Of a stretch of 64,000 nucleotides of DNA, positions 2,334 through 22,012 are shown in pieces (the first letter of the stretch is position 1; every line of letters starts with the position of its first letter). The stretch lies in assembly GCA_042408875.1 (NCBI GenBank), contig JBHOQS010000015.1, forward strand, positions 79,299-143,298, given 5' to 3'. The position numbers were made by a program, and so were the translations under genes. The notes beneath the pieces are model-generated. The model was not told the DNA's origin. It was given only the letters and a program-made list of their open reading frames with translations, and did not search any database. This DNA is from Chloroflexota bacterium. GTDB taxonomy: Bacteria > Chloroflexota > UBA11872 > JBHOQS01.

Positions 2334-2424
2334 AGGGCCGGCTGTGCTGGAACAGCGCGCGTCGCGCCGGCACAGCCGGCGCGCAGGGGGCGACCCCGAC
2401 CCTCAGGGACGGAGGCTTGCAGCA

Positions 2425-3168: not shown

Positions 3169-3225
3169 TTGCGGCGCAGGCAGCTACGTCAGAGCCAGAC
3201 TCAACCAGAGAGGGGGCGAGACACC

Positions 3226-4218: not shown

Positions 4219-4387
4219 CGGCAAACGGCACGGCCGGCGGGCGAGCAGCGACGCTCCTGGCTACTGCTCGACCTCCGCGAGCGATCAGTGCGAGACGAGC
4301 AAAGACGAGCAACGACTGAGACGAGCAAAGACTGGCAAGGTCTACTCAACACGTAGACCCGGTACCTGGACGTGAAGGAGCATAACG

Positions 4388-4999: not shown

Positions 5000-5020
5000 T
5001 CACCCCCAGCGAGGAGACGC

Positions 5021-6010
5021 ATGGCCGAAGAACCGCGAACCCCGCCTGCACCGCCAGCTCCGCCCGCGGCACGGCCCGCCGCAGCGCGCCCGGCAGCCGC
5101 CGCGCCGGCTGAAGAGGCGCCGCGCGGCATGAGCTACGAGGCCCGTCGGGCCTGGGCGCTCATTCTGCCTGCGCTCATTGGCTTGGTTGCTATGCTGTAC
5201 TGGGCCTATGAGCCTGCGCGCATGCAGGCTGCCGCTGAGCGCCAGCGCCGGGTGGAGATCCAGCGCGGCGCGCATATGTTCGCCCAGTACTGCACCCCCT
5301 GCCACGGCATTAGCGGCCAGGGAGGCGCCGGGCAGAACGGCGGCTATGCTCCAGCCCTGAACTCGGCGACGTACAAGGCTACCGATGACCCGAAGATCCA
5401 TACGCACCCAGCCGATACCCCCGAATACAAGCACACCATCGATTTTCTGACCAAGACGATCGCCCGCGGTCGTGCCATTAAGCTCCCGCAGAACCCGGCC
5501 GATCCCAATAGCCCGCTGGTAGACGTCCAGGTCATGCCGAAGTGGGCCGAGAGCGAGGGCGGGCCGCTGAACCAGCAGCAGATCCTGGAGATCGCCCTGT
5601 TCATCGCCTACGGGACCGACGAGGACTGGGAGCATATGTCGGCGCAGGCGACCCCGGTGCCGGTGCCCACACCGCTGCCGATGCCGCGCTTTGCGGACCT
5701 ACCGCCGGGAGATCCCCGCCGCGGGGAGGCCCTCTTCCGTGGCGGCGCTCAGCCACCATGTATTTCGTGTCATATCTTCGGCCAGACTGCTGCGGCGCCC
5801 GACCTTCAGCGTAATGCGCCGGAGTGGGACCGGCGGAAACCCGGCATGTCGGCCCAGGAGTATGTCCTGGAGTCCATCTGGAACCCGAACGCCTACGTCG
5901 TGCAGGGGTACCAGCCGAACATCATGCCGCAGATCTACTCCCGCCAGCTCACCCCGCAGCAGATCGCTGATCTCATCGCCTATCTGATGACGCTGCGAGG
6001 TGGGAGCTAG
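5021..6010 (+). CDS. Membrane-anchored diheme cytochrome c
   Basis: Two CxxCH heme motifs (CTPCH, CISCH); N-terminal Pro/Ala-rich region and a hydrophobic anchor; GAGGAG RBS. Confidence 0.85.
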   Translation: MAEEPRTPPAPPAPPAARPAAARPAAAAPAEEAPRGMSYEARRAWALILPALIGLVAMLYWAYEPARMQAAAERQRRVEIQRGAHMFAQYCTPCHGISGQGGAGQNGGYAPALNSATYKATDDPKIHTHPADTPEYKHTIDFLTKTIARGRAIKLPQNPADPNSPLVDVQVMPKWAESEGGPLNQQQILEIALFIAYGTDEDWEHMSAQATPVPVPTPLPMPRFADLPPGDPRRGEALFRGGAQPPCISCHIFGQTAAAPDLQRNAPEWDRRKPGMSAQEYVLESIWNPNAYVVQGYQPNIMPQIYSRQLTPQQIADLIAYLMTLRGGS

Positions 6011-6159
6011 AGAGAAGAGAATAGATATAGATATAGATGTAATCCGTCGTGCGTAAGGCTCCACGAGCCAGTCCGCTATGCGGCAGAGGCATCGCTTCGT
6101 GGCGGGTCTGGTCGAGCTTCTGCGCATGATGGATTCAGCACTGCGACCCGGAGCAACCC

Positions 6160-6819
6160 ATGGGGCGTGCCGAGGCACTCGTCCGACTTTACCGCTGTGG
6201 TGTCGTCGCCATTATGCGCAAGACGGAGTCGGCGCTGGCGATCGACGCCGCAGAGGCGCTGCTCGCGGGCGGGGTGGACCTGATCGAGGTGACGATGAAT
6301 ACGCCCGGGGCCCTGGAGATGATCCGGGATCTCACGGCCCACTTTCCGCAGGACCGCGCTTTGATCGGCGCCGGCACAGTGATGGATGTTGCCGCGGCAC
6401 AGGCGGCGATCGAGGCCGGCGCCGAATTCATCGTCTGCCCGCACCTCGATGAGAAGATCGTGGCGTATGCCGGCCATCATGATGTCATGGTAGTGCCGGG
6501 CACGCTCACGCCGACAGAGGTCGTACGCGCGATGGCTGCCGGCGCAGACGCGATCAAAGTGTTCCCCGCTGGGCCGCTCGGCCCAGGCTACATCCGCGAT
6601 CTGCTCGGCCCGCTGGATACGGCCCGCCTGGTGCCCACCGGTGGCATCACGCCGGACAATGCCGAGGCGTACATCCAGGCCGGGGCCTTCGCCCTGGGCG
6701 CCGGCTCGGCGCTGGTCGATGCCAAGACCGTGGCTGCGCGCGACTTCGACACCCTTATCCAGCGCGCCCGGCGCTTTGTCAACGCTGTGCAGCGCGGCCG
6801 CAGCGCCCGCAGGGGCTAG
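6160..6819 (+). CDS. eda: 2-dehydro-3-deoxyphosphogluconate (KDPG) / 4-hydroxy-2-oxoglutarate aldolase
   Basis: VDLIEVTMNTPGA, GAGTV, FIVCP, PGTLTPTEV, IKVFPA motifs characteristic of the Eda aldolase family. Confidence 0.85.
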   Translation: MGRAEALVRLYRCGVVAIMRKTESALAIDAAEALLAGGVDLIEVTMNTPGALEMIRDLTAHFPQDRALIGAGTVMDVAAAQAAIEAGAEFIVCPHLDEKIVAYAGHHDVMVVPGTLTPTEVVRAMAAGADAIKVFPAGPLGPGYIRDLLGPLDTARLVPTGGITPDNAEAYIQAGAFALGAGSALVDAKTVAARDFDTLIQRARRFVNAVQRGRSARRG

Positions 6820-6827: not shown

Positions 6828-7745
6828 GTGTCAGTCAGCTCCCCCGATCTGAGCGTCATCATCGTCAGCTTCAACACGCGCGCGCTGCTCGAAGCGTGCC
6901 TGCGCTCCCTCGGCCAGACGCGCGTCGCGCTCGAAGTCTTCGTCGTTGACAATGGCTCCACCGATGGTTCGGTGGAGCTCGTACGGGCCCAGTTCCCACA
7001 GGTGCGGCTGCTCCTGCCGGGGCGAAACCTAGGGTTTGCCGCGGCAAACAACATGGCCCTACGCCGGGCTACGGCGCGCCATGTCCTGCTGCTTAATCCG
7101 GATGCTGCGGTCGAACCCGGCGCCCTCGAGGCTGTAGTAAACTTCCTCGACCAGCATCCTGATGTCGGCGCGCTGGGCGGGCAGCTTACCTACGGCGATG
7201 GCAGCTTCCAGCACTCGGTGTTCCACTTTCCAACACTGCCGATGATCTTTCTGGACTTCTTCCCTCTGAACCATCGCCTGCTGAACTCTCGACTGAACGG
7301 GCGCTACCCGCGCCGCTGGTACGACCGATCGTTCGATGTTGACCATCCGCTGGGGGCGTTTATGGCCGTGCGCCGCACAGTGCTCGAAGACGTCGGCCTG
7401 CTTGACCCCAGCTATTTCATGTACTGTGAGGAGATCGACTGGGCCTATCGTATCCGCCGCGCTGGCTGGCGCATCTGCTACGTTCCTGACGCGCGTGCGG
7501 TGCACCACGCCGGCCAGAGCACCAGCCGACTCCATCGGCAGATGTTCGTCGAGCTCTATCGCAGCCGCTATTTGCTGTATCGCCGCTATCGCTCTATAGT
7601 ATTTTGCCAGGCTGCCCGCGCCATCGTGCGCGCCTGTTGTCTCGTCACGATTGGACGTGACGCGCTCCTGGTGCTGGCCGGGCGACTGGATCCGGCCGTT
7701 GCCCGTGGCCGACGTGAGGTGCTGTTGGCGGCTGCAGCATTGTGA
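6828..7745 (+). CDS. Glycosyltransferase family 2
   Basis: LSVIIVSFNTRALLEACLRSL ... VVDNGSTDGS ... GFAAANN GT-A fold signature; GTG start 9 nt after eda stop. Confidence 0.85.
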   Translation: MSVSSPDLSVIIVSFNTRALLEACLRSLGQTRVALEVFVVDNGSTDGSVELVRAQFPQVRLLLPGRNLGFAAANNMALRRATARHVLLLNPDAAVEPGALEAVVNFLDQHPDVGALGGQLTYGDGSFQHSVFHFPTLPMIFLDFFPLNHRLLNSRLNGRYPRRWYDRSFDVDHPLGAFMAVRRTVLEDVGLLDPSYFMYCEEIDWAYRIRRAGWRICYVPDARAVHHAGQSTSRLHRQMFVELYRSRYLLYRRYRSIVFCQAARAIVRACCLVTIGRDALLVLAGRLDPAVARGRREVLLAAAAL

Positions 7746-8539
7746 ACGCCTTCGCTGCGCGAGCCACTGTTATGGGCGTCACCGCAATCGTGCTCACCCG
7801 CGATGAGGAGCGCCACATCGTGCCCTGCCTCCAGACGCTGGCCTGGGCCGGCGAGCTGATCGTGGTTGATTCCGGGAGCCAGGACCGCACTGTTTCCTTA
7901 GCGCGCCGTGCCGGGGCACGCATTGTGTGTCGGGAATTCGATAATTGGGCTAAACAAAGACAATTCGCGCTCGGGCTGGCGCGCTATCCCTGGGTACTCT
8001 TCGTTGATGCTGATGAGCGCGTGACACCGGAGCTGGCCGCTGAGGTGCAGGCTGTTACCGCCCAGCCAGAGGGGGAGATCGCCGGTTACTGGATGCCGCG
8101 CCGCAACTTGATCCTCGGACACTGGATGCGCGCAACTGGCTGGTATCCCGATTACCAGCTCCGCCTGATGCGCCCGGACCGCAGCGAGTATGACTTCACA
8201 CGGCCGGTCCATGAGCTCGTGCGGCTGCACGGGCCGGCAGCGTATCTCCGGGGACATCTGCTCCATTACACTGGTGATGACCTGCGCCGCTTTCTACGCA
8301 AGCAGGAGCAGTACGCTTGGTACACTGCGGAGCAGATGTTCCGTGCGGGCACTCGTCCGAAGCTGCGCAACTATGTGCTCCAGCCATGGCGCGAGTTCTG
8401 GCGCCGGATGTGGTCCTACCGTGGCTACCGTGATGGCCTGCACGGACTCGCGCTCAGCCTGCTGATGGCCTATTACACCTGGCGCACCTATGTCACGCTT
8501 GGCCGGCGGTGGCACGGGTATGGCCGCCCAGCTCAGTAG
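7742..8539 (+). CDS. Glycosyltransferase family 2
   Basis: TAIVLTRDEERHIVPCL ... VVDSGSQD ... FVDADERV; GTGA start/stop overlap with upstream GT2 (ATG 7772 is an alternative start). Confidence 0.8.
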   Translation: MNAFAARATVMGVTAIVLTRDEERHIVPCLQTLAWAGELIVVDSGSQDRTVSLARRAGARIVCREFDNWAKQRQFALGLARYPWVLFVDADERVTPELAAEVQAVTAQPEGEIAGYWMPRRNLILGHWMRATGWYPDYQLRLMRPDRSEYDFTRPVHELVRLHGPAAYLRGHLLHYTGDDLRRFLRKQEQYAWYTAEQMFRAGTRPKLRNYVLQPWREFWRRMWSYRGYRDGLHGLALSLLMAYYTWRTYVTLGRRWHGYGRPAQ

Positions 8540-9530
8540 CGCTCGGCCGGACGTCACCGTCGTAATTGTGAGCTGGAACGTCCGCGGCTTCCTGGCGCGC
8601 TGTCTCACTACTGTGCAACGAGAGGCACAGACGGCGCCGTTCGCCACACAGATCGTGGTCGTGGACAACGGATCGACCGATGGCACACTGGACATGCTGG
8701 CACGGCAGTTCCCGGAGGTCTCTGTGCTGGCGAGTTCGTCGAACTGCGGGTTCGGCGCCGCCAACAATCGGGCCCTGGCTCGCTGTGCCACCCGCTACGC
8801 CCTAGTGCTCAATCCCGACACCGAGCTCCTGCCCGGTGCGCTGGCCAGCCTGGTCGCCGAGCTTGAGGCACATCCTGATGCGGCCGTCTGCGGACCGATG
8901 CTGCTCAATGCCGATGGATCCGTGCAATCATCACGGCGTCGCCTGCCATGCGCGATGACTGGCTTTGTCGAGAGTACCCTTGTCCAGCGGTTCCTGCCTG
9001 ACCTCACACTGCTGCGCCACTATTACGCCGCCGACCGGCCCAATGACGTGGCACAGGAAGTCGATTGGGTGACCGGCGCAGCTATGCTCGTGCGCGTGAA
9101 CGCGGCACGCCAGGTAGGGCTCTTTGACGAGGGGTTCTTTATGTTCTCTGAGGAGCTCGACTGGTGCTGGCGCTTCCGGCGTGCCGGATGGACCGTGCGG
9201 TACACGCCGGCGGCGCGGGTGATCCACTATGGCGGCCAGAGCACGGCCCAGGTGCCGCTCAGGCGCCAGTTACTGTTCCTCCACGGGAAATACCGCCTGT
9301 ATCGCAAATACTTTGGCCGTGCTCTAGAATTGGCGCTGCGAGGTTTCATCTTCTGCACCTATGTGGCCCAACTTCTCGAAGAGGCAGTGAAGCTACTCTA
9401 CCGGGCTGAGCAGCGTCCCCTCCGCGCCGAACGGGCGCGGACGTTCATGCACATTCTGCGATGGCATGTACAGGGCTCGCCGCTGCCGGTCCCTCGGAGT
9501 GGCGCGCCCGCGGCGGAGCCAGTGCGATGA
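8520..9530 (+). CDS. Glycosyltransferase family 2
   Basis: VTVVIVSWN ... VVDNGSTDGT ... GFGAANN; ORF 8490..9530 trimmed to ATG 8520 (MAAQLSS...), overlapping the end of the upstream gene. Confidence 0.85.
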   Translation: MAAQLSSARPDVTVVIVSWNVRGFLARCLTTVQREAQTAPFATQIVVVDNGSTDGTLDMLARQFPEVSVLASSSNCGFGAANNRALARCATRYALVLNPDTELLPGALASLVAELEAHPDAAVCGPMLLNADGSVQSSRRRLPCAMTGFVESTLVQRFLPDLTLLRHYYAADRPNDVAQEVDWVTGAAMLVRVNAARQVGLFDEGFFMFSEELDWCWRFRRAGWTVRYTPAARVIHYGGQSTAQVPLRRQLLFLHGKYRLYRKYFGRALELALRGFIFCTYVAQLLEEAVKLLYRAEQRPLRAERARTFMHILRWHVQGSPLPVPRSGAPAAEPVR

Positions 9531-10792
9531 CGTACCGCATCTGCCTGGTCTCCGGTGAGTACCCGCCCGCTCAGGGCGGTGTGGGCGATTACACTGCCTG
9601 CCTGGTCGCTGAGCTCGCGCGCCGGGGCCATGAAGTGCTCATCGCCACCTCGCGGCGCATTCCGGCATCGGCAGGCGGCAATGTTTTCGTATACCCGCTG
9701 GTCGAGCGGTGGAATGCCGCTGCCCTGCCAGTCCTGCAGGCTTTCCTGCGCCAGGTCCGCCCCGACGTCATCCACATTCAGTATCAACCTGCCGCCTACA
9801 GTATGGAGTGGGCGATCTGCCTGCTGCCAGCAATGATCCGGCACATGAACTGGCGTCCGCAGGCGCGGGTGGCTGGCAGCCCGCTCGGCCGGCCGCTTGC
9901 CGGCGCGCGTCCCCTGGTGGCAGTGACCTGCCATGATCTGCGTGTGCCCTGGCTCTTTCCGAAGGCCGGGCCGCTGCGCGAGCTGCCGCCGCGGCTCATG
10001 CGCTGCGCCAGTGATACCGTCATCGCCGTTGCCGCCGAAGACCTGGCGCTGCTTCGGGCGCGCGGCGAGGCGATGCGTGCAACGCATATTCCGATCGGCA
10101 GCAACATCGCGGTAGCGCCACCACCCGGCTACCGGCGCGAGGCATGGCGCGCCGCCCACGGCGTCGGCCCTGACGAGCAGCTCATCGGCTTTTTCGGCTT
10201 TGCGAACGCCAGCAAAGGGCTAGACACCTGGTGGCAGGCCCTGGAGGTGCTGCTCCACGCCGGGCGGCCGGTCCGGCCCGTGCTGATCGGCGGCACAGCT
10301 GGTGACAGCGACGCGACCAATGCGGGCCAGGTGCGGGCGTTGGAGCACTGGCGTAGCAGCAGCGCTGCCGGCCGGCGCGCCATTGTGACGGGCTTCCTCC
10401 CCCCGGCCGAGGTGTCGGCCTGGCTGCTGGCGTGTGACGCTTGCGCACTGCCCTTCCGCGATGGCGCGTCGCTTCGCCGCGGGAGCCTGCTCGCCGCCCT
10501 ACTCCACGGTGTTCCCGTGGTCACGACTTTCCCGCCCAGGGCTGGGACCGCGTTGGAGCCGGGCCGACATGTGCTGTGCGTGCCGCCCGACGACGCTAGC
10601 GCGCTGGCCGCTGCCCTGGCACAGCTCCTCGACGACTCCGAGCTCCGCGAGTGCCTTGCCCGGGCCGGCCGTGCACTGGCCGGGCAGTACACCTGGACCG
10701 CCATCGCCGCACAGCACTTGCGCCTGTACCAGGACCTCCTAGCGCGCCTTCGTCCCCACACCCCGAGCATCCCTGCAGAGGAGTGTCTATGA
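9527..10792 (+). CDS. Glycosyltransferase family 4 (GT-B, retaining)
   Basis: ORF 9461..10792 trimmed to ATG 9527 (MTYRICLVSGEYPPAQGGVGDY), ATGA overlap with upstream stop; C-terminal GT4-type nucleotide-sugar binding region. Confidence 0.85.
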   Translation: MTYRICLVSGEYPPAQGGVGDYTACLVAELARRGHEVLIATSRRIPASAGGNVFVYPLVERWNAAALPVLQAFLRQVRPDVIHIQYQPAAYSMEWAICLLPAMIRHMNWRPQARVAGSPLGRPLAGARPLVAVTCHDLRVPWLFPKAGPLRELPPRLMRCASDTVIAVAAEDLALLRARGEAMRATHIPIGSNIAVAPPPGYRREAWRAAHGVGPDEQLIGFFGFANASKGLDTWWQALEVLLHAGRPVRPVLIGGTAGDSDATNAGQVRALEHWRSSSAAGRRAIVTGFLPPAEVSAWLLACDACALPFRDGASLRRGSLLAALLHGVPVVTTFPPRAGTALEPGRHVLCVPPDDASALAAALAQLLDDSELRECLARAGRALAGQYTWTAIAAQHLRLYQDLLARLRPHTPSIPAEECL

Positions 10793-10811
10793 TCCCCGGT
10801 GAGGTGCGGCA

Positions 10812-13800
10812 GTGCATGTGAGGCTGCCCGCTCGCAGCTCCTCGTCCCGTCCGGTGCACCTTCCTGGCGGTGCCACTGTGGGCGCGCCGGGCGCGCGCCC
10901 GCCCATGGTGCCGCTCGGCGTACTCGCGCTGACGCTGCCCGCGTTCCTCGTGCGGCTCTGGGGTATCGATTGGGAAAACCTCTGGTGGGATGAGGCGCTC
11001 AGCGTGTACCGTGCCAGCTCGACCTGGCCGGAGTTGCTCACGAACACGATCCGCATCCAGGGGACAGAGACGAAAGACCTGCACCCGCCGCTGTATTTCG
11101 TCTTCCTCCGCCTGTGGATGCTCGGTGCCGGCCAGAGCGAGTTCGCCGCGCGCGCGCTCTCAGCTATGCTCGGCGTGCTCCTCGTGCCCCTCGGAGCCGC
11201 GCTGGCGGCCCGGTTGGTCGGGCGCCGGGCCACGCTGCCCGCGGCAGCTCTGGCGGCGTTCTCTCCGTTTGCCGTGTGGTACGGCCAGGAAGCGCGCATG
11301 TACACGCTTGTGCCGCTGCTCAGCGCGCTCTCGGTCTACGTGCTGCTCCGGGCACTCGAAGAGCAACAGCTCAGGCTCTACGTGGCGTATCTGGCCACCA
11401 CCGCGGCGCTGCTCTACACACACTACTTCGGTCTCTTTCTCCTGGCGGTCCACGCCGGTTGCGTACTGCTAGCGGCGCGACAACAGGCGCGCCGTGGCCT
11501 GCGCTGGAGTCTCCACCCGCTGCGCGCTCCCGACCGGGCTGTGCCGCTCCTGGCGGTGCTCATCGGCGCACCGCTCACACCGTATATCGTGTGGCGGCTC
11601 ACGACGGGGCATGAGTGGGGACGCCGGCTCATCTCGCTGCCGCAGATCCTCTGGGACACCTGGCGTGTGCACCTGGCCGGCCTGGCTGGTGGCTGGCATG
11701 CCGAAGCGCTCAGCGTGGCTGTCGCGGGCGCATGCGCGGTGGTCGCGCTGGTTTTGTCCAGGCAGCGGTCCCCTCGCCCGGCACTGGCGCTGGGACCGTC
11801 GAGCGTCGGGGGGAACGGCCATCCAAGCCATACGGGCCATGCGAACTCTGCAGGTGCTGTATACCGAGCTGCCGGACCGCGCTGGGATATGCTGGCCATC
11901 TATCTCCTCGTCCCTGTAGTGGCGATCTTCCTGCTTTCGCTGATCAAGCCGCTCTTTGGCCACATCAGGTATATGAGCATCGTGTCGCCGGCGCTGTACA
12001 GTGCATTGGGTGGGGCCATCGCCTCCTCTCGCCGTGGCGGTGTGCTGCTGGCCGGCCTAGCCGGCCTGGCGATGCTCTACGGGAACGCTGCCCAGCGTCT
12101 TGACCCCGCCTCGAGGCGCGAGGCATACGCCGCGGCCATGCAGTTCGTCGAGCGCCACAGCCAGCCGGGGGACGCCGTCATCTTCTACGCGAACGGCTCG
12201 GAGCCTGCGTTCCTCTATTACGTCAAGCGCGGGCTCCCGTGGTACTCGCTGCCGCGCCCGGAGCACGACCGCACCGACCCGCGGCTGATCGGAGAAGAAT
12301 TGGCGCCTATCGCGCAGGCCCACCCGCGTGTCTGGCTGGTCACCCTGGGCGCGGAGATGGCCGACCCGCGTGGGCTGATCGTCGAATGGCTGGAGACACA
12401 TGCGGTACGCAGCCTGAGCGCCAGCTTCTGGGGTGGCGGCTTCGGCAGAGCGCTTGAGGTGGCGCGCTATGAGACCCGGCCAGTGTACGGGACTGCACGT
12501 GCGGAGGTCACCGGGCTCGGTGCCGGCGGGACTAGCACTTGGCCCGGTGCGCTGCTGGTGCAGGCGGCCAGCCCAGGCGTCAATCTGGGGAACGCGCTGC
12601 GTTTGCACCAGGCCGTTTTTATCGTTGACACCGGCGCCGGCAGCGCCACAGCAACCTATTACTGGGAGGTGCTTCGCCCGGTTACGAACGAACTCGTGGT
12701 GTCAACCCGTATCGTGGACGGTGAAGGGCGAACGTGGGCGCAGCGCGACAGCCCGCCTCTGAATGGCAGCGCCCTGGCCTCCCAGTGGCAGGCCGGCACG
12801 TTCGTCCGCGATGTTCACGACCTGACGCTTGAGGACGGGATGCCACCCGGCCACTATTACCTTGTGCTGGAGGTCTACTCGCTCCCGGCACAGCGTGGTC
12901 TGGAAATTATAAACGAGCAGGGCATCGGCAGCGGGACGCTGGTCCGTCTCGGTGAATTCACGACTGTCGCACCCGCGCCTGCTGTGCCTCCCCGGCGACT
13001 GCTCCCCGTCCGCATGGGCCCGATCGACTTGCTGGAGGCCCGCCTGGGAACCGGGAGCGCGAAACCTGGCGAGCGCCTGCGGGTCCAGGGTCTGGTGCAG
13101 CTCACTGGGCAGGGCGCCGCTGGGGTAGCTGGCGGGGCTGGCGCGCCACAGCCGGTTCTGCGCGCGCGGCTGGTAGATGCGCAGGGCCATACCGTACGGG
13201 AAGCCAGTGCGCCGCTCGGGCTACTGTTCGGGGAGGATACTGGGCAGGACCGCGGTCGCGGTGCTGTGCTGGGATGGAAGCTGGACCTCCTGCTTCCCGC
13301 GGGCTTGCCGAGCGGCCGCTACCGTGCACAGGTCGCCCTTGACGCGCCCGGCGCCAGGGCTGCTGCGATCCGCTGGGGACGCCTGCTGCACCCGTCGGTG
13401 TGGCGTCCTGCAGTCTCCAGCGATGGTGGCCCGGCCACTGCGCCGGCGTTGCGCTGGCCGCGCCCGGCGGGTCACCCGGTTGGCGGCGGCTGGGTCGAGG
13501 TCGGCGAGGTCCTCGTCCAGGGACGCACTCCTGACCTCCATTCCCCGCGGCCGCAGCATGTCATCTCGGTGCGGGTGGGCGAAGCCATCCAGCTCATCGG
13601 GTATGATGTGAGCACGACGAGCATACGGCCCGGCGAGACGCTCTACCTCACGCTCTACTGGCGCTGCACCGCAGCGATGGAGACCAGCTATACCGTCTTC
13701 ACGCACCTACTCGATCCGTCCGGCCGGCTGCGCGGCCAACATGATGACATACCCCACCGCGGTGAGCTCCCGACGACGAGCTGGGTTGCTGGGGAGTACA

Positions 13801-13985
13801 TCACCGATCGCTATGAGCTCCAGCTCGCTGCAGACGCACCGCCTGGAATATACTGGCTGGAAGTCGGCATGTATGATGCCCGTACGCTGGTCCGGTTACC
13901 GCTCTACGCTGATGGCGCGCGGCTTGCGGACGACCGCGTGCTTCTGACACAGATCATGGTGCAGCCCGCCGCACCACTGCAATGA
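10812..13985 (+). CDS. GT-C fold glycosyltransferase, PMT/ArnT (GT39/GT83)-like, with large C-terminal extracytoplasmic domain
   Basis: 1057 aa; multi-helix N-terminal membrane domain with a DE motif in the first loop (WWDEALSVY); GTG start with GAGGTG upstream; C-terminal domain carries repeated PPG.Y.L..G.YD motifs. Confidence 0.75.
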   Translation: MHVRLPARSSSSRPVHLPGGATVGAPGARPPMVPLGVLALTLPAFLVRLWGIDWENLWWDEALSVYRASSTWPELLTNTIRIQGTETKDLHPPLYFVFLRLWMLGAGQSEFAARALSAMLGVLLVPLGAALAARLVGRRATLPAAALAAFSPFAVWYGQEARMYTLVPLLSALSVYVLLRALEEQQLRLYVAYLATTAALLYTHYFGLFLLAVHAGCVLLAARQQARRGLRWSLHPLRAPDRAVPLLAVLIGAPLTPYIVWRLTTGHEWGRRLISLPQILWDTWRVHLAGLAGGWHAEALSVAVAGACAVVALVLSRQRSPRPALALGPSSVGGNGHPSHTGHANSAGAVYRAAGPRWDMLAIYLLVPVVAIFLLSLIKPLFGHIRYMSIVSPALYSALGGAIASSRRGGVLLAGLAGLAMLYGNAAQRLDPASRREAYAAAMQFVERHSQPGDAVIFYANGSEPAFLYYVKRGLPWYSLPRPEHDRTDPRLIGEELAPIAQAHPRVWLVTLGAEMADPRGLIVEWLETHAVRSLSASFWGGGFGRALEVARYETRPVYGTARAEVTGLGAGGTSTWPGALLVQAASPGVNLGNALRLHQAVFIVDTGAGSATATYYWEVLRPVTNELVVSTRIVDGEGRTWAQRDSPPLNGSALASQWQAGTFVRDVHDLTLEDGMPPGHYYLVLEVYSLPAQRGLEIINEQGIGSGTLVRLGEFTTVAPAPAVPPRRLLPVRMGPIDLLEARLGTGSAKPGERLRVQGLVQLTGQGAAGVAGGAGAPQPVLRARLVDAQGHTVREASAPLGLLFGEDTGQDRGRGAVLGWKLDLLLPAGLPSGRYRAQVALDAPGARAAAIRWGRLLHPSVWRPAVSSDGGPATAPALRWPRPAGHPVGGGWVEVGEVLVQGRTPDLHSPRPQHVISVRVGEAIQLIGYDVSTTSIRPGETLYLTLYWRCTAAMETSYTVFTHLLDPSGRLRGQHDDIPHRGELPTTSWVAGEYITDRYELQLAADAPPGIYWLEVGMYDARTLVRLPLYADGARLADDRVLLTQIMVQPAAPLQ

Positions 13986-15952
13986 GCCGGCGTGCGGGTC
14001 GTGGAGGCAGCATGACGAGAACGGTGCTCAGCCCGCCTGAGCAAGCCGCGTACTCTGTACCGGCACAACAGGCCGCGCCTCATCCACCGCACCGTGCTGC
14101 CAGCGTGGCCGTAGCTCTCCTTGCTGTCTGGTGCTTCTTCGTCAGTGCGGTGTACAGCGTTGCCACGCCGATCTTTGAGGCGCCGGATGAGCCCTTCCAC
14201 TTCGCCTATGTCCGCTGGCTTGCCTCCGGCCGCGGCCTGCCCGTGGTCGATCCGCTCCGGCCGGAAGCCTGGCGCCAGGAAGGCACGCAGCCGCCGCTCT
14301 ACTACGCGATCGGGGCGCTGCTCACCAGTTGGCTTGATACGGGCGACCTCCCGCTCGTGCTCGCATTCAATCCGCACGCCCGTCTAGGCGTCCCCGACGC
14401 CACGGACAATCGCAATGCGGTGATCCATACCCCTCGTGAGCATTTTCCGTACCGAGGCTCCGTGTTCGTGGTGCATCTCCTGCGGCTGCTCTCTGCCGCG
14501 CTGGCCGCCCTCACCATCCTGGCCACGTACATGCTGGCGAGAGCGGTGTGGCCAGAGCGGCGGAGCGCGGCCCTGCTCGCTGCGGCGCTCGTGGCCGCGA
14601 ATCCTATGTTCCTATTCATCAGCGCATCAGTGAACAACGACGCGCTGGCTACGCTGCTTGCGACGACTTGCCTGACACTCACGGTATACGCCGCAGTGCG
14701 GCCCTCTCGCTGGGGTGCGCTGGCAGCCGGGGCAGCTGGTGGGCTGGCGCTGCTGGCGAAGCTGAACACTGCGTGGGTTATCCCACTGGCCGCGCTCTAT
14801 ACCGGCATGTGCACATACCGTCGGGAGGGGCCGGGCGCGGCGCTGCGCGCTGTCAGTGCGATGCTGCTGGCCGCCGTCGCGGTGGCCGGCTGGTGGCCGG
14901 CGCGCAATCTGCTGGTCTACGGCGACCTGGCTGGCCTGGCCGCGCACCTGGCCGTGATGGGCAGCGCGCCCCGCCGCGAGGTCGCCCAGCTTCTCGACGA
15001 GCTGGCAGGGCTGCGTTTCGCTTTCTGGGGCATCTTCGGCTGGTTCAATGTCCTGCCACCGCTCGCCTACTACATCCCCTTCTGGAGCGCCACCTGCGCG
15101 GGGCTAGTCGGGCTGGCCTTGCAGGTAGGTTCGGGACGCCGGGGCAGCTCACCCGTGACTGTGCCCGCGCGACCTGGCCAGGCGCCACTGTGGCTGCTTA
15201 CCGGGGCGGTCCTCTCGGCCCTGGGCAGCCTGCTGTGGTGGACCCTCCAGACACAGGGCGCACAAGGGCGGCTGCTCTTTCCGGCGTGGCCCGCTGCGGC
15301 GGTCCTGCTGGTCTACGGCTGGGAGCGGCTTGCCGGCGCGCGCCGGTTGCTCCCCTTCGGGAGCGCTCTCGTAGCTGCACAGGCCGTGCTCGCTGCCGTG
15401 ACCCCGCTCGCCGTGATCGCCCCGGCCTATCACCTTCCGGCCGACAGCCAGCCAGGGCTCGGCCAGGCCCGTCCCGCGGCAGCGGGGACCGGCGAGCTCT
15501 GGCGGTATGACGGCCGTATCGCTCTGCTCGCAGCGGAGCTTCCAGCCACTGTGCGCCCCGGCGAGCCAGTAGTAGTTACCCTGCACTGGCGAGCGCTGGA
15601 CGCGCCGGGCCGGAACCTGTCGGTGTACGTCCAAGTCCTGGCGCCGTCGGGCCGTAAAGTCGGGCAGCGCGATAGCTTCCCCGGCGGAGGCCTCGCACCC
15701 ACAGTCTACTGGCGTGCCGGTGATGAACTCATCGAGCGCGTTACCGTACCGCTGGAGCCCGACCTGCCACCTGGGGAGTATACGGTCCTGGTCGGCCTGT
15801 ACGATCTCGCGCCGCCGGCCCATCTGTTCCTGCCAGCGCCGGCCTCCAGCGACCGCATCCGTGACTCCCGCTACATCGTCGCCGGAACAGTGCGCCTCGT
15901 AGCTACGCAGCCCGAGGCAGGACAGGCTGCCGGGGAGGGCGGACGGCAGTGA
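13982..15952 (+). CDS. GT-C fold glycosyltransferase, PMT/ArnT-like
   Basis: 656 aa; ATGA overlap with upstream gene; first loop APDEPFHFAYV; multiple TM helices; C-terminal LPPGEYTVLVGLYD motif shared with the upstream paralog. Confidence 0.75.
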   Translation: MSRRAGRGGSMTRTVLSPPEQAAYSVPAQQAAPHPPHRAASVAVALLAVWCFFVSAVYSVATPIFEAPDEPFHFAYVRWLASGRGLPVVDPLRPEAWRQEGTQPPLYYAIGALLTSWLDTGDLPLVLAFNPHARLGVPDATDNRNAVIHTPREHFPYRGSVFVVHLLRLLSAALAALTILATYMLARAVWPERRSAALLAAALVAANPMFLFISASVNNDALATLLATTCLTLTVYAAVRPSRWGALAAGAAGGLALLAKLNTAWVIPLAALYTGMCTYRREGPGAALRAVSAMLLAAVAVAGWWPARNLLVYGDLAGLAAHLAVMGSAPRREVAQLLDELAGLRFAFWGIFGWFNVLPPLAYYIPFWSATCAGLVGLALQVGSGRRGSSPVTVPARPGQAPLWLLTGAVLSALGSLLWWTLQTQGAQGRLLFPAWPAAAVLLVYGWERLAGARRLLPFGSALVAAQAVLAAVTPLAVIAPAYHLPADSQPGLGQARPAAAGTGELWRYDGRIALLAAELPATVRPGEPVVVTLHWRALDAPGRNLSVYVQVLAPSGRKVGQRDSFPGGGLAPTVYWRAGDELIERVTVPLEPDLPPGEYTVLVGLYDLAPPAHLFLPAPASSDRIRDSRYIVAGTVRLVATQPEAGQAAGEGGRQ

Positions 15953-18408
15953 CCCGTGGCGACCTCGCGGCGATCGCCGCCGTGCTGCTGCTTCCGGTGG
16001 CGCTGTTCTGGCGCGTGCTGTTCGACGGCGCGACCATGCCGCCGGGCGGCGGTGACTTCGCCGCGTTCGTCTACCCCAACTTCGTCTTCGCCGCACGCTG
16101 GCTCCAGCAGGGCACACTGCCCCTGTGGAATCCCCACTTCTTTTCCGGCGCGCCGTTCCAGGCCGACGTGCAGACCGGGCTCTTCTATCCATTGAACCTC
16201 CTCGCGCTGCTCAGTGCACGGCCATTCACCTACCGGGCGCTTGAGCTTCTGGCCATCGCCCACTACAGCCTGACTGGCCTGCTTATGTGGCTCTACCTGC
16301 GGCGCCTGGGTGTCGGACAGCTTGCCTCCCTGGCCGGGGCTGCGGCGTGGCAGGCCTGCGGGTTCCTGGTCGCACACCTCGGGCATTACAACATGCTGGC
16401 TGTAGCGGCCTGGCTGCCTGGCCTGCTCCTTGCCCTGGAGGCCGCCCTGCCGGCCCTGCGAGGGCCCGCGCTCGGGCGCGCGGCGCGGCCGGTGGGAGCC
16501 GCTGCCCTGGTGTACGGGCTGTCGGCGCTGGCCGGACACACGCAGATGACACTGTACCTGGGCCTCGCCGGGACGATCTACCTGCCGGCTCGTCTGCTGA
16601 CTAGCCTGGATGCCGGACCGGCCGCCAGCGCCCTGCGCGGCAAGCTGCTGGCGCGCGGGCTCGCTGCTGCGGCGCTCGTGCTTATGCTCGGTGGCGGCAT
16701 CGCTGCGGTGCAGTACCTGCCCACCCTGGAGCTAGCGCGGGTCTCGGTACGCGCAGCTATCACGTTTGAGCAGGGCCGTGAGTTCGCCCTGCCTGCGGCC
16801 GCCCTGCTGCTGTTCCTGGCGCCGGGCTTCTTCGGCTCGGCCCAGACCGGGATATGGTATCTTTCCAGCCTGACCGAGAGCTACACCTACACCGGCATCG
16901 TCGTGCTGGTGCTCGCCTCCGCCGGGGTCCTGCTGCCACGCCCACAGGTGCGGCGCCTTGCGCTCCTGCTGGCAGCCCTGGCGGCGGGGAGCTTGCTGCT
17001 CGCCCTCGGCGATGAGACCGCGTTGTATGGATGGCTGTGGCGAGGGGTGCCGCTCTTCGATCGATTGCGTGCGGCAGGGCGTTTCCTGCTGCTCACGCAC
17101 GTTGCCCTTGCGACCCTCGCTGCGCTCGGGCTCGACGGCCTACGGCCGCCCTGGGGCACCCGCCACCGCCTGTTTGTTGATCGCCTGCTAGCGGCCTGGG
17201 GGCTGCTGCTGGCCGCCCTGGTCCTGCTGGCGCTGCCCACTGGCTATCTGGGTCTGGCGCTATATGCCAGCCGCGATGCCGTACTGGCCCAGCGAGCCGG
17301 CGCAGCACTGGGATCGCTGACGGTCGCCGCGCTGCTTCTAGGCCTGACCCTGGGGCTCCTGGCCCTCTACCGGTCCGGCCGGCTGGGCTGGACATCCTTC
17401 GCTGGACTCATGCTTGTCCTGTTGCTGGCCGACCTCCACGGCGCGAACGGGCGCTACAACCCTACGACTGCTGATATCCTCTCAGCCTACCGCCATCCCG
17501 AGGCTGTGCAGTTCCTTGCCTCCCAGCCAGGCATCTTCCGAGTGGACAGCGACACCGGCATCGACGATATCTGGCACCCCAGCCTGCCGGCGCTGGCTGG
17601 CTATGAGAGCACCTGGGGCCTGTTCAACCCGCTCGGCCTGGCCGAGTATCAGGTGCTGCTCAAGGGCCACCTCCGCGACCGCTCGAGCAGGCTCTACCAG
17701 TTCCTGAATGCACGCTATCTGGTGGTGAAGAAGGGCGAGCGCCCGCCCGGTGAAACGTTCCGTCCGGTGTTCCTCCAGGACCCGCGGGTCGACATTTACG
17801 AAAACGCCCAGGCGCTCCCGCGGGCGTTCGTCGTGTACGACGCTCAGGTCGTGGACGGCCGCGCGGCCGCGCTGGCAGCCATCACCACCCCCGGTTTCGA
17901 TCCGGCGCGCACGGTTGTGCTCGAACGCAGCCAGGGAGATATACCGGCCAGCGCTGCCCCGTCGCCGCAGCCCTCCTTCACACCCGCTGAGCTCGAACAG
18001 ACAGGACCTGGACGGCTGCGCGTGCGCGTGCAGGCAGCGCGTCCAGGCTGGCTGGTGCTGAGCGAGGTCTGGTACCGCGGTTGGCATGCGAGGGTGGACG
18101 GCCAAGCTGCACCGGTGCGACGTGCCAACTGGCTCTTCCGCGCCGTGCCGGTGGATACGGGAGAGCACATCGTCGAGCTCTGGTTTGCCCCTGCCACCTT
18201 CGTCGCAGGAGCGGCGATCAGTGTCGCATCGCTGCTGGCGTGCCTGGTCCTGCTCTCACCGCTCCCCCAGCGCCTGGGCAGAGGCAGAGTGCAGGCGCCG
18301 TCTTCAGGGCGCTGTACGCCAGATATGTGCGATCCGCTGCACGACGGTGATGCTCGAGATGATGGCCAGCGCAGCAATAGCGATTTCCAGCGTCGGCCGG
18401 CCGAGTAG
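15949..18408 (+). CDS. YfhO family membrane glycosyltransferase-like protein
   Basis: 819 aa; GTGA overlap with upstream gene; N-terminal FDGATMPPGGGDFAAFVYPNFVFAARWLQQGTLPLWNPHFFSGAPFQADVQTGLFYPLN is characteristic of YfhO; many TM helices. Confidence 0.8.
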   Translation: MTRGDLAAIAAVLLLPVALFWRVLFDGATMPPGGGDFAAFVYPNFVFAARWLQQGTLPLWNPHFFSGAPFQADVQTGLFYPLNLLALLSARPFTYRALELLAIAHYSLTGLLMWLYLRRLGVGQLASLAGAAAWQACGFLVAHLGHYNMLAVAAWLPGLLLALEAALPALRGPALGRAARPVGAAALVYGLSALAGHTQMTLYLGLAGTIYLPARLLTSLDAGPAASALRGKLLARGLAAAALVLMLGGGIAAVQYLPTLELARVSVRAAITFEQGREFALPAAALLLFLAPGFFGSAQTGIWYLSSLTESYTYTGIVVLVLASAGVLLPRPQVRRLALLLAALAAGSLLLALGDETALYGWLWRGVPLFDRLRAAGRFLLLTHVALATLAALGLDGLRPPWGTRHRLFVDRLLAAWGLLLAALVLLALPTGYLGLALYASRDAVLAQRAGAALGSLTVAALLLGLTLGLLALYRSGRLGWTSFAGLMLVLLLADLHGANGRYNPTTADILSAYRHPEAVQFLASQPGIFRVDSDTGIDDIWHPSLPALAGYESTWGLFNPLGLAEYQVLLKGHLRDRSSRLYQFLNARYLVVKKGERPPGETFRPVFLQDPRVDIYENAQALPRAFVVYDAQVVDGRAAALAAITTPGFDPARTVVLERSQGDIPASAAPSPQPSFTPAELEQTGPGRLRVRVQAARPGWLVLSEVWYRGWHARVDGQAAPVRRANWLFRAVPVDTGEHIVELWFAPATFVAGAAISVASLLACLVLLSPLPQRLGRGRVQAPSSGRCTPDMCDPLHDGDARDDGQRSNSDFQRRPAE

Positions 18409-18888
18409 CAACCCCAGGCCCAGCGCCACCACCCGCTCCGGACGCTGAAAGAGGCCGACCTTACACTCGAGCCCCAACCCCTCGGCGCGAGCACGGGCAT
18501 AGCTAACCATGAGCGAGCCGATCACCGCCATGTACGTGAGCGCCAGCTCCAGCAGCGAGCCACCGTGCTGGTAGTAGTATAGGAGCACGCCGAAGAACAG
18601 CGCCGCCTCGGAGATGCGGTCCATAGTTGAATCGAAGAAGGCCCCGAAAACAGTCTTCCTGTTCGCCACGCGGGCGAGCGCACCGTCGAGCATATCGAAG
18701 GCGCCGGAGAACAGCACCAGCGCGCCGCCCCAGGCGAGGTGGCCGCTAGCGATCACCGCAGCCGTGGCCAGGTTCAACAGGAAGCCGACCAGGGTCAGGG
18801 CGTTGGGCGAGACGCCGAGGCGCGCCAGCGGCGTAACGCTGCCCTCTGCCACGCGGCGAGCCAGATCAACCAGCCAGGAGGCGAACAT
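18304..18888 (-). CDS. CDP-alcohol phosphatidyltransferase (candidate phosphatidylinositol-phosphate synthase)
   Basis: FDMLDGALARVANRKTVFGAFFDSTMDRISE matches D-x2-DG-x2-AR...G-x3-D-x3-D; last gene of the PI/PIM operon. Confidence 0.85.
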   Translation of the reverse strand: MFASWLVDLARRVAEGSVTPLARLGVSPNALTLVGFLLNLATAAVIASGHLAWGGALVLFSGAFDMLDGALARVANRKTVFGAFFDSTMDRISEAALFFGVLLYYYQHGGSLLELALTYMAVIGSLMVSYARARAEGLGLECKVGLFQRPERVVALGLGLLLGRPTLEIAIAALAIISSITVVQRIAHIWRTAP

Positions 18889-18891
18889 AGG

Positions 18892-20058
18892 CTAGCCCGT
18901 GCTCGGCAGCAGCACACCCGGCACTGGGCGCCGCTGCGCAGCAAGGATGTCTTCGTAATAGGCCAGGATACGCCTGGCGATGCGGTCCCAGGCATAGGCC
19001 TGCACGCGGCGCCGGCCAGCCTCGGCCAGCCGGGCCCGATAGCCGTCATCGGCAATCAGACGGGTCAGCGCCACCGCCAGCGCCGTCGCATCCCCAGGCG
19101 GCACCAGCAGGCCGGCCTCACCCGCCGCCAGGACTGTGCGATAGCCCTCAATGTTAGAGGCCACCACCGGCTTGCCCGCCGCCATGGCCTCCAGCAGGAC
19201 GATCCCCTGGCTCTCCCGGCCGATCGCCGGGGCGCAGAACAGATCGCAGGACTTATAGTAGCGGATCTTGTCCTCGGGCGAGACGAAGCCCTTGAAGAGC
19301 ACGTCGGTCAGACCAGCCTGCCGCACGAACGTCTCGTAGGCCGCGCGCTGCTCGGCCTCGAAGGCGCCGACCACGAGCAGGCGCACGCTGGGGAATTGCT
19401 GCTTCACGTACGTGAGCGCCTGAAGTAGGTAGAGCAGCCCCTTGCGCTTCTCCAGGCGCCCTACGAAGAGGATGTTCAGGTAACCGTCGCGCAGCTCTGG
19501 GAAGGGCGCCAGGCGCGGGTCGGCGAACTGCTCCAGGTCCACGCCGTTGGGAATGATCTCGTACGTGGCCGGGAAGTACGTGCTGATGAACCGCATGGCC
19601 GCCGTCGAGACAGCAATGCGCCCATGAAGCTTGGCGAAGTAGCGCGCCAAGATCGGCTTACCCAGGCGGTAGCCGGTGTAGGAGCGGCGCGCCGCATGGA
19701 AGGTCGCCACGTTGACGGTCGTGGAATGGCGCAGCACAGTAATCGGTACTGCTGGCGCGAACGGCTCGTGTAGATGGATAATATCGAAGTTCTCGGCGGC
19801 AAGGATCTGCTTCACCCGCCGGGAGAGGGTGAGCGACAGGTTGATGCGCGCCACCGCCTGATTGGCCGGCACACCAATGATCCGCTCTCCCACGCGGTAG
19901 AGGTTGTCGCACGGGAGCTCACGCTCGTCTTTCGAGGACGGCGCCAGAATGCGCACCTGGTGGCCCAGCCGCCGAAACTGCTGGTCAAGGTGCCGGATGT
20001 GCTCGGTGACGCCGCCCGGATAAGCAAAGTCGTATGGCGAGACCAGGGCGATCTTCAT
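18892..20058 (-). CDS. pimA: GT4 glycosyltransferase, PimA-like (phosphatidylinositol mannosyltransferase candidate)
   Basis: ORF 18892..20139 trimmed to ATG 20058 (ATGA overlap with upstream stop). MKIALVSPYDFAYPGGVTEHIRHLDQQFRRLGHQVRILAPSS resembles the N-terminus of mycobacterial PimA as I recall it (recalled, not aligned); C-terminal GT4 motif region. Confidence 0.8.
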   Translation of the reverse strand: MKIALVSPYDFAYPGGVTEHIRHLDQQFRRLGHQVRILAPSSKDERELPCDNLYRVGERIIGVPANQAVARINLSLTLSRRVKQILAAENFDIIHLHEPFAPAVPITVLRHSTTVNVATFHAARRSYTGYRLGKPILARYFAKLHGRIAVSTAAMRFISTYFPATYEIIPNGVDLEQFADPRLAPFPELRDGYLNILFVGRLEKRKGLLYLLQALTYVKQQFPSVRLLVVGAFEAEQRAAYETFVRQAGLTDVLFKGFVSPEDKIRYYKSCDLFCAPAIGRESQGIVLLEAMAAGKPVVASNIEGYRTVLAAGEAGLLVPPGDATALAVALTRLIADDGYRARLAEAGRRRVQAYAWDRIARRILAYYEDILAAQRRPVPGVLLPSTG

Positions 20059-21955: not shown

Positions 21956-22012
21956 ACCTTTCCCACCGCTCCCGTCCTGCGCCCACTCCTAAAGCACACG
22001 CCGTCTACGAGT

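Follow-up and report, generated by a model that had tools for sequence, protein, structure and literature searches.

In mycobacterial EmbC and AftD, C-terminal carbohydrate-binding modules keep the polysaccharide at the active site. The Wzt domain, which is cytoplasmic and attached to an ATPase, holds O-antigen. For proteins of the DUF2142 family, extracytoplasmic polymerization or ligation of lipid-linked oligosaccharide has been proposed; among the DUF2142 GT-C proteins of Lactococcus, WpsI is the proposed cell-wall polysaccharide polymerase and WpsJ a proposed transferase (PMC12599335, PMC9746298). A three-component glycosylation model combines a CsbB/GtrB GT2, a GtrA/GtcA flippase and a YfhO/GtrC GT-C enzyme for glycosylation outside the cytoplasm (PMC7389260).

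We analyzed seven genes (g1 to g7) in a 64-kb window, i.e. the whole stretch of DNA under study, from an uncultured Chloroflexota bacterium that most probably belongs to the Anaerolineae class. With moderate confidence we read them as one operon, possibly including the preceding eda gene, that would assemble an extracytoplasmic envelope polysaccharide or glycan. All seven ORFs are on the plus strand between 6828 and 18408, as the sequence-only reading of this DNA had noted:

6160-6819, plus strand: eda, Eda (KDPG/KHG aldolase), NCBIfam TIGR01182 at 190.9 bits against 156
6828-7745, plus strand: g1, cytoplasmic GT2 glycosyltransferase, 305 aa, WbbL/EpsD-like
7742-8539, plus strand: g2, GT2, 265 aa (255 aa from ATG 7772), GmaR/SunS/KdtX-like subgroup
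8520-9530, plus strand: g3, GT2 glycosyltransferase, 336 aa; longest ORF from 8490
9527-10792, plus strand: g4, GT4 (GT-B fold) glycosyltransferase, 421 aa; longest ORF from 9461
10812-13985, plus strand: g5, GT-C (PMT_2/ArnT-PMT-like) enzyme, 1057 aa
14012-15952, plus strand: g6, GT-C (DUF2142/PMT_2-like), 646 aa from ATG 14012 (656 aa from 13982), one C-terminal module
15949-18408, plus strand: g7, YfhO-family polytopic membrane protein, putative GT-C, 819 aa, without the module

The seven ORFs share a coding-type GC3 bias, and the gaps between them do not exceed 26 nt. These gaps and the stop/start overlaps argue for co-translation. Neither a sigma-70-like promoter nor a convincing terminator was found inside the cluster, and the arrangement looks like an operon. 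The set recurs with its order unchanged in relatives with 72-92% protein identity. The eda stop codon precedes the g1 start by 8 nt, a spacing that is identical in the relative locus L002; the transcription unit may begin with eda.

The family calls made earlier (three GT2, one GT4, two ArnT/PMT-like GT-C proteins and a YfhO homolog) all stand, with Pfam scores above the curated cut-offs. g1 matched Glyco_tranf_2_3 at 96.5 bits and Glycos_transf_2 at 90.6 bits, the latter model also detecting g2 (51.4 bits) and g3 (76.6 bits; cut-off 23.3 in each case). The GT4 domains of g4 (Glyco_trans_1_4, Glyco_trans_4_4, Glycos_transf_1 and Glyco_transf_4) scored 43-55 bits against cut-offs of 26-30. With 40% identity (E 6e-62), g1 and g3 are WbbL/EpsD-like paralogues. 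PDB matches of g1 were Leloir GT2 enzymes, chondroitin synthase among them. Among solved proteins, g2 came closest to the protein O-GlcNAc transferase GmaR (2e-8), followed by ThuS/SunS, SunS being a peptide S-glycosyltransferase. ArnC, GtrB and DPMS were absent among the PDB matches of both g1 and g2. As a comparison query we used an ArnC-like GT2 from locus L073, which matches ArnC at 2.5e-20; against the window it returned weak general GT2 similarity only. A CsbB/Ppm1-type polyprenyl-phosphate transferase identity was rejected for the operon GT2s, none of the three resembling ArnC, DPMS or GtrB. The comparison with CsbB/YfhO and Ppm1/Pmt systems, which the sequence-only reading had proposed, therefore fails on the GT2 partner.

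The absence of a flippase, polymerase and chain-length regulator, noted earlier, was confirmed across the genes of the 64-kb window: no flippase (GtrA/GtcA-type or other) and no Wzy/Wzz were found among them, nor an initiating phosphoglycosyl transferase or a polyprenyl-phosphate GT2. The pathway is thus incomplete as seen in the window. Like the three-component system, the locus has a YfhO-family protein (g7), depends on GT-C enzymes and would act outside the cytoplasm; unlike it, neither the operon nor the window has a CsbB/GtrB-type GT2 or a GtrA-type flippase. With the WpsI/WpsJ systems of Lactococcus/Streptococcus, whose roles are themselves proposals, it shares a GT-C protein above the DUF2142 threshold (g6) and an operon with several cytoplasmic GT2/GT4 enzymes. 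In contrast, the WpsA/WpsB initiator, WpsG flippase and WpsH co-polymerase are without counterparts in the window, and lactococcal WpsI/WpsJ are not reported to carry the module of g5 and g6.

Beyond close relatives, only sub-sets of the genes recur, namely g5 with g6, GT2-GT4-g6 and g5-x-YfhO. In loci L007, L017 and L030, a g4 homologue (40-43% identity) immediately precedes a g6-like GT-C gene, and the order 3-module GT-C, 1-module GT-C, YfhO recurs in L071. That the full set is not conserved more widely, and that components of one complete route are absent from the window, would fit several unrelated envelope glycosyltransferase genes lying side by side and serving different substrates, e.g. 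for separate decorations. We give this reading very little credence: it is at odds with the signs of co-translation, and the recurrence of sub-sets in distant genomes argues for functional coupling of g4 with g6, g5 with g6 and g5 with YfhO.

Both GT-C calls pass their HMM thresholds. g5 scored 42.1 bits for PMT_2 (cut-off 26.1) and has a polytopic GT-C fold, with a membrane domain at residues 33-430 and an alpha/beta domain at 439-555, followed by three beta-sandwich modules. W58, D60 and E61 in its first extracytoplasmic loop are invariant in 55 homologues, and the HPPLY motif (H91-Y95) is invariant or nearly so. g6 exceeded the cut-offs for DUF2142 (39.0 against 30.1), PMT_2 (30.9 against 26.1) and PMT (23.9 against 22.7). 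After its first transmembrane segment, D69 and H73 are conserved in all 23 family members and E66 in 21; a QPPLYY motif and D119 are kept in 21-23 of the 23. The sequence-only reading had taken g5 and g6 for paralogous enzymes. This did not hold, since BLASTP finds no similarity between their membrane domains (E 1.1); the family matches place them in different GT-C subfamilies, PMT_2 and DUF2142, with the module alone common to both.

PMT_2 and PMT membership, a matching fold, an acidic D-E motif after the first transmembrane segment and HPPLY are features shared with ArnT (GT83) and PMT (GT39). Unlike those enzymes, g5 and g6 carry extra beta-sandwich modules (three and one, respectively), and the operon contains no ArnC/Ppm1-type GT2. 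No MIR family, as in eukaryote-type PMT (GT39 sensu stricto), was among the Pfam matches of g5 and g6, and the GT-C proteins showed no sequence-level match to a solved ArnT or PMT. In fold comparison, Pmt4 scored only slightly above ArnT, AglB and ALG12, so PMT function is not singled out by the fold. The expected donor is a polyprenyl/dolichyl-phosphate monosaccharide; ArnC/DPMS-like GT2 genes adjoin g5 homologues in L073 and L072.

One alternative is protein O-glycosylation, in which Pmt-like g5 and g6 would transfer mannose or another sugar from polyprenyl phosphate to Ser/Thr residues in secreted proteins or S-layer proteins, with the modules binding the protein substrate or its glycan. 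The nearest solved relatives of g2, which glycosylate proteins or peptides, count against a polysaccharide product. However, the fold is not PMT-specific, and a Ppm1/DPMS-type GT2 is absent from both operon and window (the genome may carry one at another site). A Pmt system would also need fewer enzymes than the three additional Leloir transferases and three distinct GT-C proteins seen here. The surroundings of related genes suit a complex polymer better: GT-C genes in other Anaerolineae form arrays of up to eight in tandem, Wzy_C genes follow such arrays in L071 and L026, and in L017 genes for GDP-mannose dehydratase (Gmd) and phosphomannomutase (PMM) lie upstream of GT2-GT4-g6-g6-g5. Overall, protein O-glycosylation appears rather unlikely.

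The third membrane protein, g7, matched Pfam YfhO at 41.6 bits (cut-off 28.5), the aligned part being residues 688-758 only; its N-terminal 688 aa alone scored 6.7 bits. We nevertheless assign it to the YfhO family because PF09586 is present in every one of its full-length homologues (25-91% identity), several of which bear the name YfhO family protein. Fusions to MOP flippase (MOP/Wzx) or PMT_2 domains occur in some of them. D36, W60, P69 and Q75 do not vary among 37 homologues, and g7 aligns from end to end with the YfhO protein of the L071 triad at 29% identity. Retention of the acidic motifs in g6 (E66, D69, H73) and g7 (D36) speaks for the polysaccharide reading, as do the published proposals for the lactococcal DUF2142 proteins. 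An envelope polysaccharide is also favored by the context in other Chloroflexota, namely Wzy_C, Gmd/PMM, ArnC/DPMS-type GT2 genes, YfhO-flippase fusions and the recurring gene order.

The module shared by g5 and g6 occurs four times in the operon:

12549-12971, plus strand: g5 module A, residues ~580-720, contains MPPGHYYLVLEVYSL; module HMM E 2e-33
13008-13511, plus strand: g5 module B, residues ~733-900, contains LPSGRYRAQVAL; a degenerate copy, with insertions of low confidence
13557-13961, plus strand: g5 module C, residues ~916-1050, contains APPGIYWLEVGMYDA
15494-15901, plus strand: g6 module, residues ~505-640 (numbered from 13982), contains LPPGEYTVLVGLYDL; module HMM E 9e-37

All three instances of the C-terminal motif quoted in the sequence-only reading were recovered, and module B adds a fourth, degenerate one. 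That reading had also proposed a duplicated C-terminal domain; homologous modules are indeed present in g5 and g6, but g5 has three copies rather than two. By BLASTP, g5-C and the g6 module share 37% identity over 122 residues (E 6e-24), g5-A matches g5-C at E 1e-12, and g5-B matches g5-A at E 1e-3. The similarity is far beyond chance, and the alignments mark the four modules as homologous. Within the window, module B does not reach the module HMM threshold, but in most homologues the HMM does detect the middle module.

The module is a widespread beta-sandwich domain of ~130 residues without a Pfam model. Its predicted structure is a confident beta-sandwich (pLDDT 97), closest to Wzt O-antigen-binding domains and GH2 Ig-like domains. 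In the model of g5, module A has beta strands at 581-718, and module B folds into a beta-sandwich spanning 733-902, in which the loops 769-775, 807-814 and 857-884 are disordered. The g6 module matched Pfam Wzt_C (PF14524) below threshold (E 1.2e-3, 19.3 bits against 30.4), and g5 modules A and C gave no match at E up to 10. The fold is the same as in the Wzt C-terminal domain, but the Pfam score is sub-threshold and the module follows a GT-C membrane domain, the topology of which leads us to expect it outside the cell membrane. The conserved residues W950, W991, Q976, D978 and E995 are suggestive of sugar binding. The fold suggests a glycan-binding module, which probably holds a cell-surface polysaccharide. 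EmbC/EmbA/EmbB and AftD have the same order of a polytopic GT-C domain and then one or more beta-sandwich domains that are extracytoplasmic (as inferred for g5 and g6); as with Emb, the GT-C genes lie in tandem and the extra domains presumably serve to retain the polysaccharide acceptor.

For the envelope polysaccharide operon, we propose the following route. From their family membership, g1-g4 would act as soluble Leloir enzymes at the cytoplasmic face, using nucleotide sugars to assemble a glycan on polyprenyl phosphate as carrier. The lipid-linked product, a sugar or oligosaccharide, would cross the membrane with the help of a flippase encoded elsewhere. Judging from their fold and catalytic motifs, g5, g6 and g7 may then pass sugars from lipid-phosphate donors to the growing extracytoplasmic polymer, each probably forming another linkage or serving another step (extension, branching or ligation). 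The modules, situated outside the membrane behind the catalytic domain, would bind the polysaccharide acceptor or product and hold it at the active site.

A second gene set converges on g7:

18304-23236, minus strand: PI/PIM-like gene set (inositol-1-phosphate synthase, two PatA-like acyltransferases, GT4, PIP synthase)

From its gene families this is a candidate phosphatidylinositol/PIM-like glycolipid gene set; the top NCBIfam matches are below cut-off (PIP synthase, 155.4 against 170; PIM acyltransferases, 155 and 196 against 209), and Ino1 was identified through Pfam Inos-1-P_synth in L002. In our reading, the combination of Ino1, PatA-like, GT4 and PIP synthase genes is that of the mycobacterial pgsA1-patA-pimA operon. 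g7 and the PIP synthase gene share 105 nt at their 3' ends. This direct downstream position on the opposite strand, and its retention in L002 and L003, are consistent with the GT-C enzymes extending the glycosyl-phosphatidylinositol of the neighboring operon into a lipomannan-like lipoglycan, comparable to actinobacterial PimE, MptA/B/C and Emb. We regard such a lipoglycan as quite unlikely. The two gene sets are adjacent in close relatives only.

Overlapping starts and stops had been claimed at five positions, four of which are plausible. g2 and g3 overlap by 20 nt (8520/8539), g3 and g4 by an ATGA (9527/9530) and g6 and g7 by a GTGA (15949/15952); these three match independent gene calls on the identical metagenome contig L001, where g3 starts at the position equivalent to 8520. 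At 7742, gene callers picked ATG 7772 instead, and two of three substitutions in 7742-7771 against a 72-90% identical relative are synonymous; a GTGA overlap of g1 and g2 is plausible here. The fifth overlap, at 13982, is not conserved, its frame being broken by a 1-nt indel in a relative, and was rejected as the g6 start. ATG 14012, with a GGAGG site 7 nt upstream, is the better candidate.

Seven long ORFs with a GC3 bias of the coding type occupy positions 6828-18408 on the + strand. The families proposed for them in the sequence-only reading were borne out by Pfam, with every assignment above the curated cut-off, including the GT-C calls for g5 and g6:

g1, g2 and g3, + strand: GT2
g4, + strand: GT4
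g5, + strand, 1057 aa: PMT_2
g6, + strand, 656 aa: DUF2142, PMT_2 and PMT
g7, + strand, 819 aa: YfhO

None of the seven received an equivalog-level assignment from NCBIfam. g1 and g3, at 40% identity, are true paralogues. The YfhO match of g7 is limited to residues 688-758; scored separately, the N-terminal 688 residues gave nothing useful. However, PF09586 was present in all full-length g7 homologues, several of which are named YfhO family proteins. Catalytic motifs are conserved. The g7 family has an invariant Asp (D36) after the first membrane helix, and the g6 family carries the motif P-x-x-E-x-x-D-E-x-x-H, followed by Q-P-P-L-Y-Y, with D69 and H73 conserved in 23/23 members. The proposal that g5 and g6 are GT-C paralogues did not hold in the usual sense: their membrane domains have no BLASTP similarity (E 1.1), and a recent duplication was rejected on this ground. 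g5 and g6 are distant members of one superfamily with a C-terminal module in common. Searching solved structures by sequence with g5, g6, g7 and the g5- and g7-family profiles produced no meaningful match. Fold comparison alone was informative, with Pmt4 as the best match.

The C-terminal parts of g5 and g6 had been described as sharing the motif PPG.Y.L..G.YD. All three quoted peptides are present, as is a fourth, degenerate copy, LPSGRYRAQVAL. These peptides mark homologous segments of ~130 residues each, three in g5 (modules A, B and C) and one in g6. Module C of g5 and the g6 module are 37% identical (E 6e-24); within g5, module A matches C with E 1e-12 and B matches A with E 1e-3. An AlphaFold model of g5, based on a 55-sequence alignment (pLDDT 81.5, pTM 0.76), comprised a helical membrane domain (residues 33-430), an alpha/beta domain (439-555) and three successive beta-sandwiches (~580-720, 733-900 and 916-1050), the middle one with disordered insertions. 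The last module, predicted on its own, reached a pLDDT of 97.3. In this single-module model the motif forms a tight turn (PPG) and the next long strand of a beta-hairpin, which makes it a predicted determinant of the fold. Conservation of polar and aromatic residues, W950 and W991 among them, is highest just before it, in the loop-helix segment Q-x-D-x-x-P...P-T-x-x-W-x-x-G-E. Of the duplicated extracytoplasmic carbohydrate-binding domain proposed earlier, the repeated domain stands, with a predicted beta-sandwich fold; its glycan ligand and its position outside the cell are presumptive.

The module has no Pfam model at the sequence level and gave only sub-threshold matches (Wzt_C with E 1e-3 for the g6 module; MalQ_N, RbmA-like FnIII and DUF4832 in homologues). 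The labels PF21226 (MalQ_N) and PF16116 (DUF4832) on some homologues were all below threshold and were discarded. A profile of the three window modules, run against 1.84 billion cluster representatives (50% identity clustering), matched 24,764 proteins at E <= 1e-3, with 15,951 of them reaching E <= 1e-10. The typical match was a protein of 900-1100 residues with three tandem copies. A word-index search with the module profile returned almost exclusively short fragments from 1-kb contigs, with little information on architectures; the exhaustive representative search proved more useful, as did scanning the fetched loci with an HMM. In databases, proteins combining GT-C and module are named merely "glycosyltransferase family 39 protein".

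Overlaps of starts and stops had been claimed at five junctions. Those at 8520, 9527 and 15949 match independent gene calls (8520/8539; 9527/9530, ATGA; 15949/15952, GTGA). At 7742, a GTG start overlaps the g1 stop and ATG 7772 is the alternative; in the 30 nt ahead of ATG 7772, 2/3 substitutions relative to a related sequence are synonymous, and GTG 7742 is a plausible start of g2. The overlap at 13982 was not supported: in a relative, the 13982 frame is destroyed by a 1-nt indel located ahead of 14012, and ATG 14012 has GGAGG upstream. The g4 stop and the g5 start are separated by 19 nt, with a GAGGTG site ahead of g5, and all gaps between the seven genes are <=26 nt.

A promoter and terminator scan, whose weight is low in a Chloroflexota genome, found no sigma-70-like promoter, and terminator-like hairpins were all within coding sequence and were not counted as terminators. 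The strongest (11710-11751) is a GC-rich hairpin of 17 bp with TTTTG behind it; it lies in sequence coding for a membrane helix of g5 and probably does not act as a terminator. Gene content and order are unchanged on an identical 18.7-kb metagenome contig and on two contigs from relatives (72-92% protein identity). We infer that g1-g7 are co-transcribed. The eda stop lies 8 nt ahead of g1, with the same spacing in the relatives (L002 among them), so the transcription unit may begin further upstream. A co-directional run starts well ahead of g1:

2290-6819, + strand: cytochrome b-like, Rieske and c-type cytochrome genes, then an Eda-type KDPG/KHG aldolase gene

Named homologues were all from Chloroflexota, mainly Anaerolineae, including Thermoflexales and Ca. 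Roseilinea, and these names are the basis of the taxonomic placement. The HMM scan of fetched loci revealed runs of 5-8 consecutive co-directional GT-C genes with 1-4 modules each in Anaerolineae:

L007, L010, L011, L019, L020, L021, L026 and L037: GT-C arrays

Array members were mostly of the g6 type with two modules, interspersed with g5-type members with three. A g4-like GT4 and a g1/g3-like GT2 lie directly 5' in L007, L017 and L030. At L017, genes for GDP-mannose 4,6-dehydratase and phosphomannomutase (620-3199) are located just 5' of a GT2-GT4-g6-g6-g5 series, which hints at a product containing mannose or 6-deoxyhexose. A Wzy_C gene (O-antigen ligase/polymerase family) is found directly 3' of the GT-C array in two Chloroflexota loci unrelated to each other (L071, 17746-19320; L026, 18383-19843). 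Methyltransferase genes are neighbours in L071 and L073, and in L071 a YfhO gene follows a 3-module and a 1-module GT-C. Several g7 homologues are fusions of ~1350-1400 aa that join YfhO to MOP/Wzx flippase domains (PF01943, PF13440) or to PMT_2 (P0352, P0373, P0374, P0388; P0369, P0378, P0379). Given these arrays and recurrent neighbours, the window contains a minimal version of a much-expanded system. That g1-g7 are independent, unrelated glycosyltransferase genes is unlikely because of their tight packing and the recurring sub-sets.

The suggested comparison with CsbB/YfhO and Ppm1/Pmt systems fails at the GT2 partner. g1 matches chondroitin synthase and other Leloir GT2 enzymes, and g2 matches GmaR (2e-8) and the S-glycosyltransferases SunS and ThuS. 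The structure-database relatives of g1 and g2, being of another GT2 type, rule both out as donor synthases, and g3 is ruled out by its identity to g1. Genes for polyprenyl-phosphate glycosyltransferases of the ArnC/DPMS type do adjoin or lie near g5 homologues in two other genomes, whereas the window has none:

L073, 9244-9945: 233-aa GT2 directly 5' of the g5 homologue (ArnC 2.5e-20; archaeal DPMS 1e-15)
L072, 15041-15763: gene of the same type

Used as query against the window, the L073 protein found nothing beyond weak general GT2 similarity. The remaining window genes encode no flippase, Wzy or Wzz, as had been noted before, and no phosphoglycosyl transferase. A protein O-glycosylation system is a less likely alternative. 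In its favour are the top structural match, Pmt4, and the similarity of g2 to GmaR, but it leaves the Wzy_C and Gmd/PMM neighbours and the large paralogue arrays without explanation.

A second operon lies next to g7 and is convergent with it:

18304-23236, - strand: genes for inositol-1-phosphate synthase, two PatA-like acyltransferases, a GT4 and PIP synthase

Together these genes correspond to the mycobacterial pgsA1-patA-pimA locus with ino1 added; the NCBIfam assignments are top matches, yet below the cut-offs. Its gene content suggests that this Chloroflexota lineage may produce acylated glycosyl-phosphatidylinositol lipids, and our literature search found no paper on PIM in Chloroflexi. 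With Ino1, acyltransferase, GT4 and PIP synthase genes adjacent, a lipoglycan built on the product of this operon is an attractive alternative. However, only very close relatives share the adjacency, and the operons converge. Functional coupling was downgraded because the adjacency is absent in all distant loci. The 3' ends of the g7 ORF and the PIP synthase gene overlap by 105 nt on opposite strands (18304-18408). In L002, g7 is 785 aa long, with 3 nt between its end and the PIP synthase gene; g7 tails vary and contain many indels.

The most economical reading is that g1-g7 form an operon for an extracytoplasmic envelope glycan. Inside, the soluble GT2 and GT4 enzymes would act on a lipid carrier; outside, three different GT-C enzymes would use lipid-phosphate-linked donors, with the modules as putative acceptor- or product-binding domains. 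Donors, acceptor and module ligand are putative. EmbC and AftD use carbohydrate-binding modules in the way proposed for g5 and g6, as binders of acceptor or product. The envelope-glycan reading also fits the roles put forward for WpsI and WpsJ, both DUF2142 proteins, in the assembly of lactococcal wall polysaccharide (PMC12599335, PMC9746298), and for YfhO in the glycosylation of teichoic acid (PMC7389260). A more far-reaching version, which we consider rather doubtful, is a Chloroflexota-specific wall or sheath polysaccharide machinery with a core of module-bearing GT-C enzymes, Emb/Aft-like but of independent origin. Each GT-C paralogue (this operon has two, other Anaerolineae as many as eight consecutively) would add one defined linkage from a polyprenyl-phosphate sugar, and the tandem modules would serve as acceptor-specific clamps or rulers fixing the order of addition. 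In this lineage, the PIM-like glycolipid of the neighbouring operon might even serve as the polymer's anchor.

Already known are GT-C enzymes that carry additional carbohydrate-binding domains, and so are operons combining Leloir with GT-C transferases. New are a module family without a Pfam model or a solved structure detectable by sequence search, on which we found no paper; the presence of three GT-C subfamilies within one compact operon; and the expansion into tandem arrays in Anaerolineae. Literature searches combining Chloroflexi or Chloroflexota with GT-C, GT39, ArnT or phosphatidylinositol mannoside turned up no relevant work. Members of the Chloroflexota abound in hot springs, sediments and wastewater sludge, but their cell-envelope chemistry and biosynthesis are poorly known. 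In this operon a very large uncharacterised family, a GT-C domain with 1-4 beta-sandwich modules, is represented in compact form. The defined module with its high-confidence predicted fold would permit a new domain model, and as a 130-residue soluble domain it would permit binding experiments; it would also open a route to the identity of the polymer in the envelope. Pending a ligand or phenotype, practical benefits are modest.

Elsewhere in the window, two ORFs of coding-type composition (39635-41080, 481 aa; 52630-53793, 387 aa) had no Pfam match at E <= 1e-5. An 806-aa protein (48563-50983, + strand) combines three PG_binding_4 repeats with a YkuD L,D-transpeptidase domain, a domain content that indicates a peptidoglycan wall in the source organism. 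A tmRNA gene (61127-61494, - strand) encodes the tag peptide AKPQYSYALAA.
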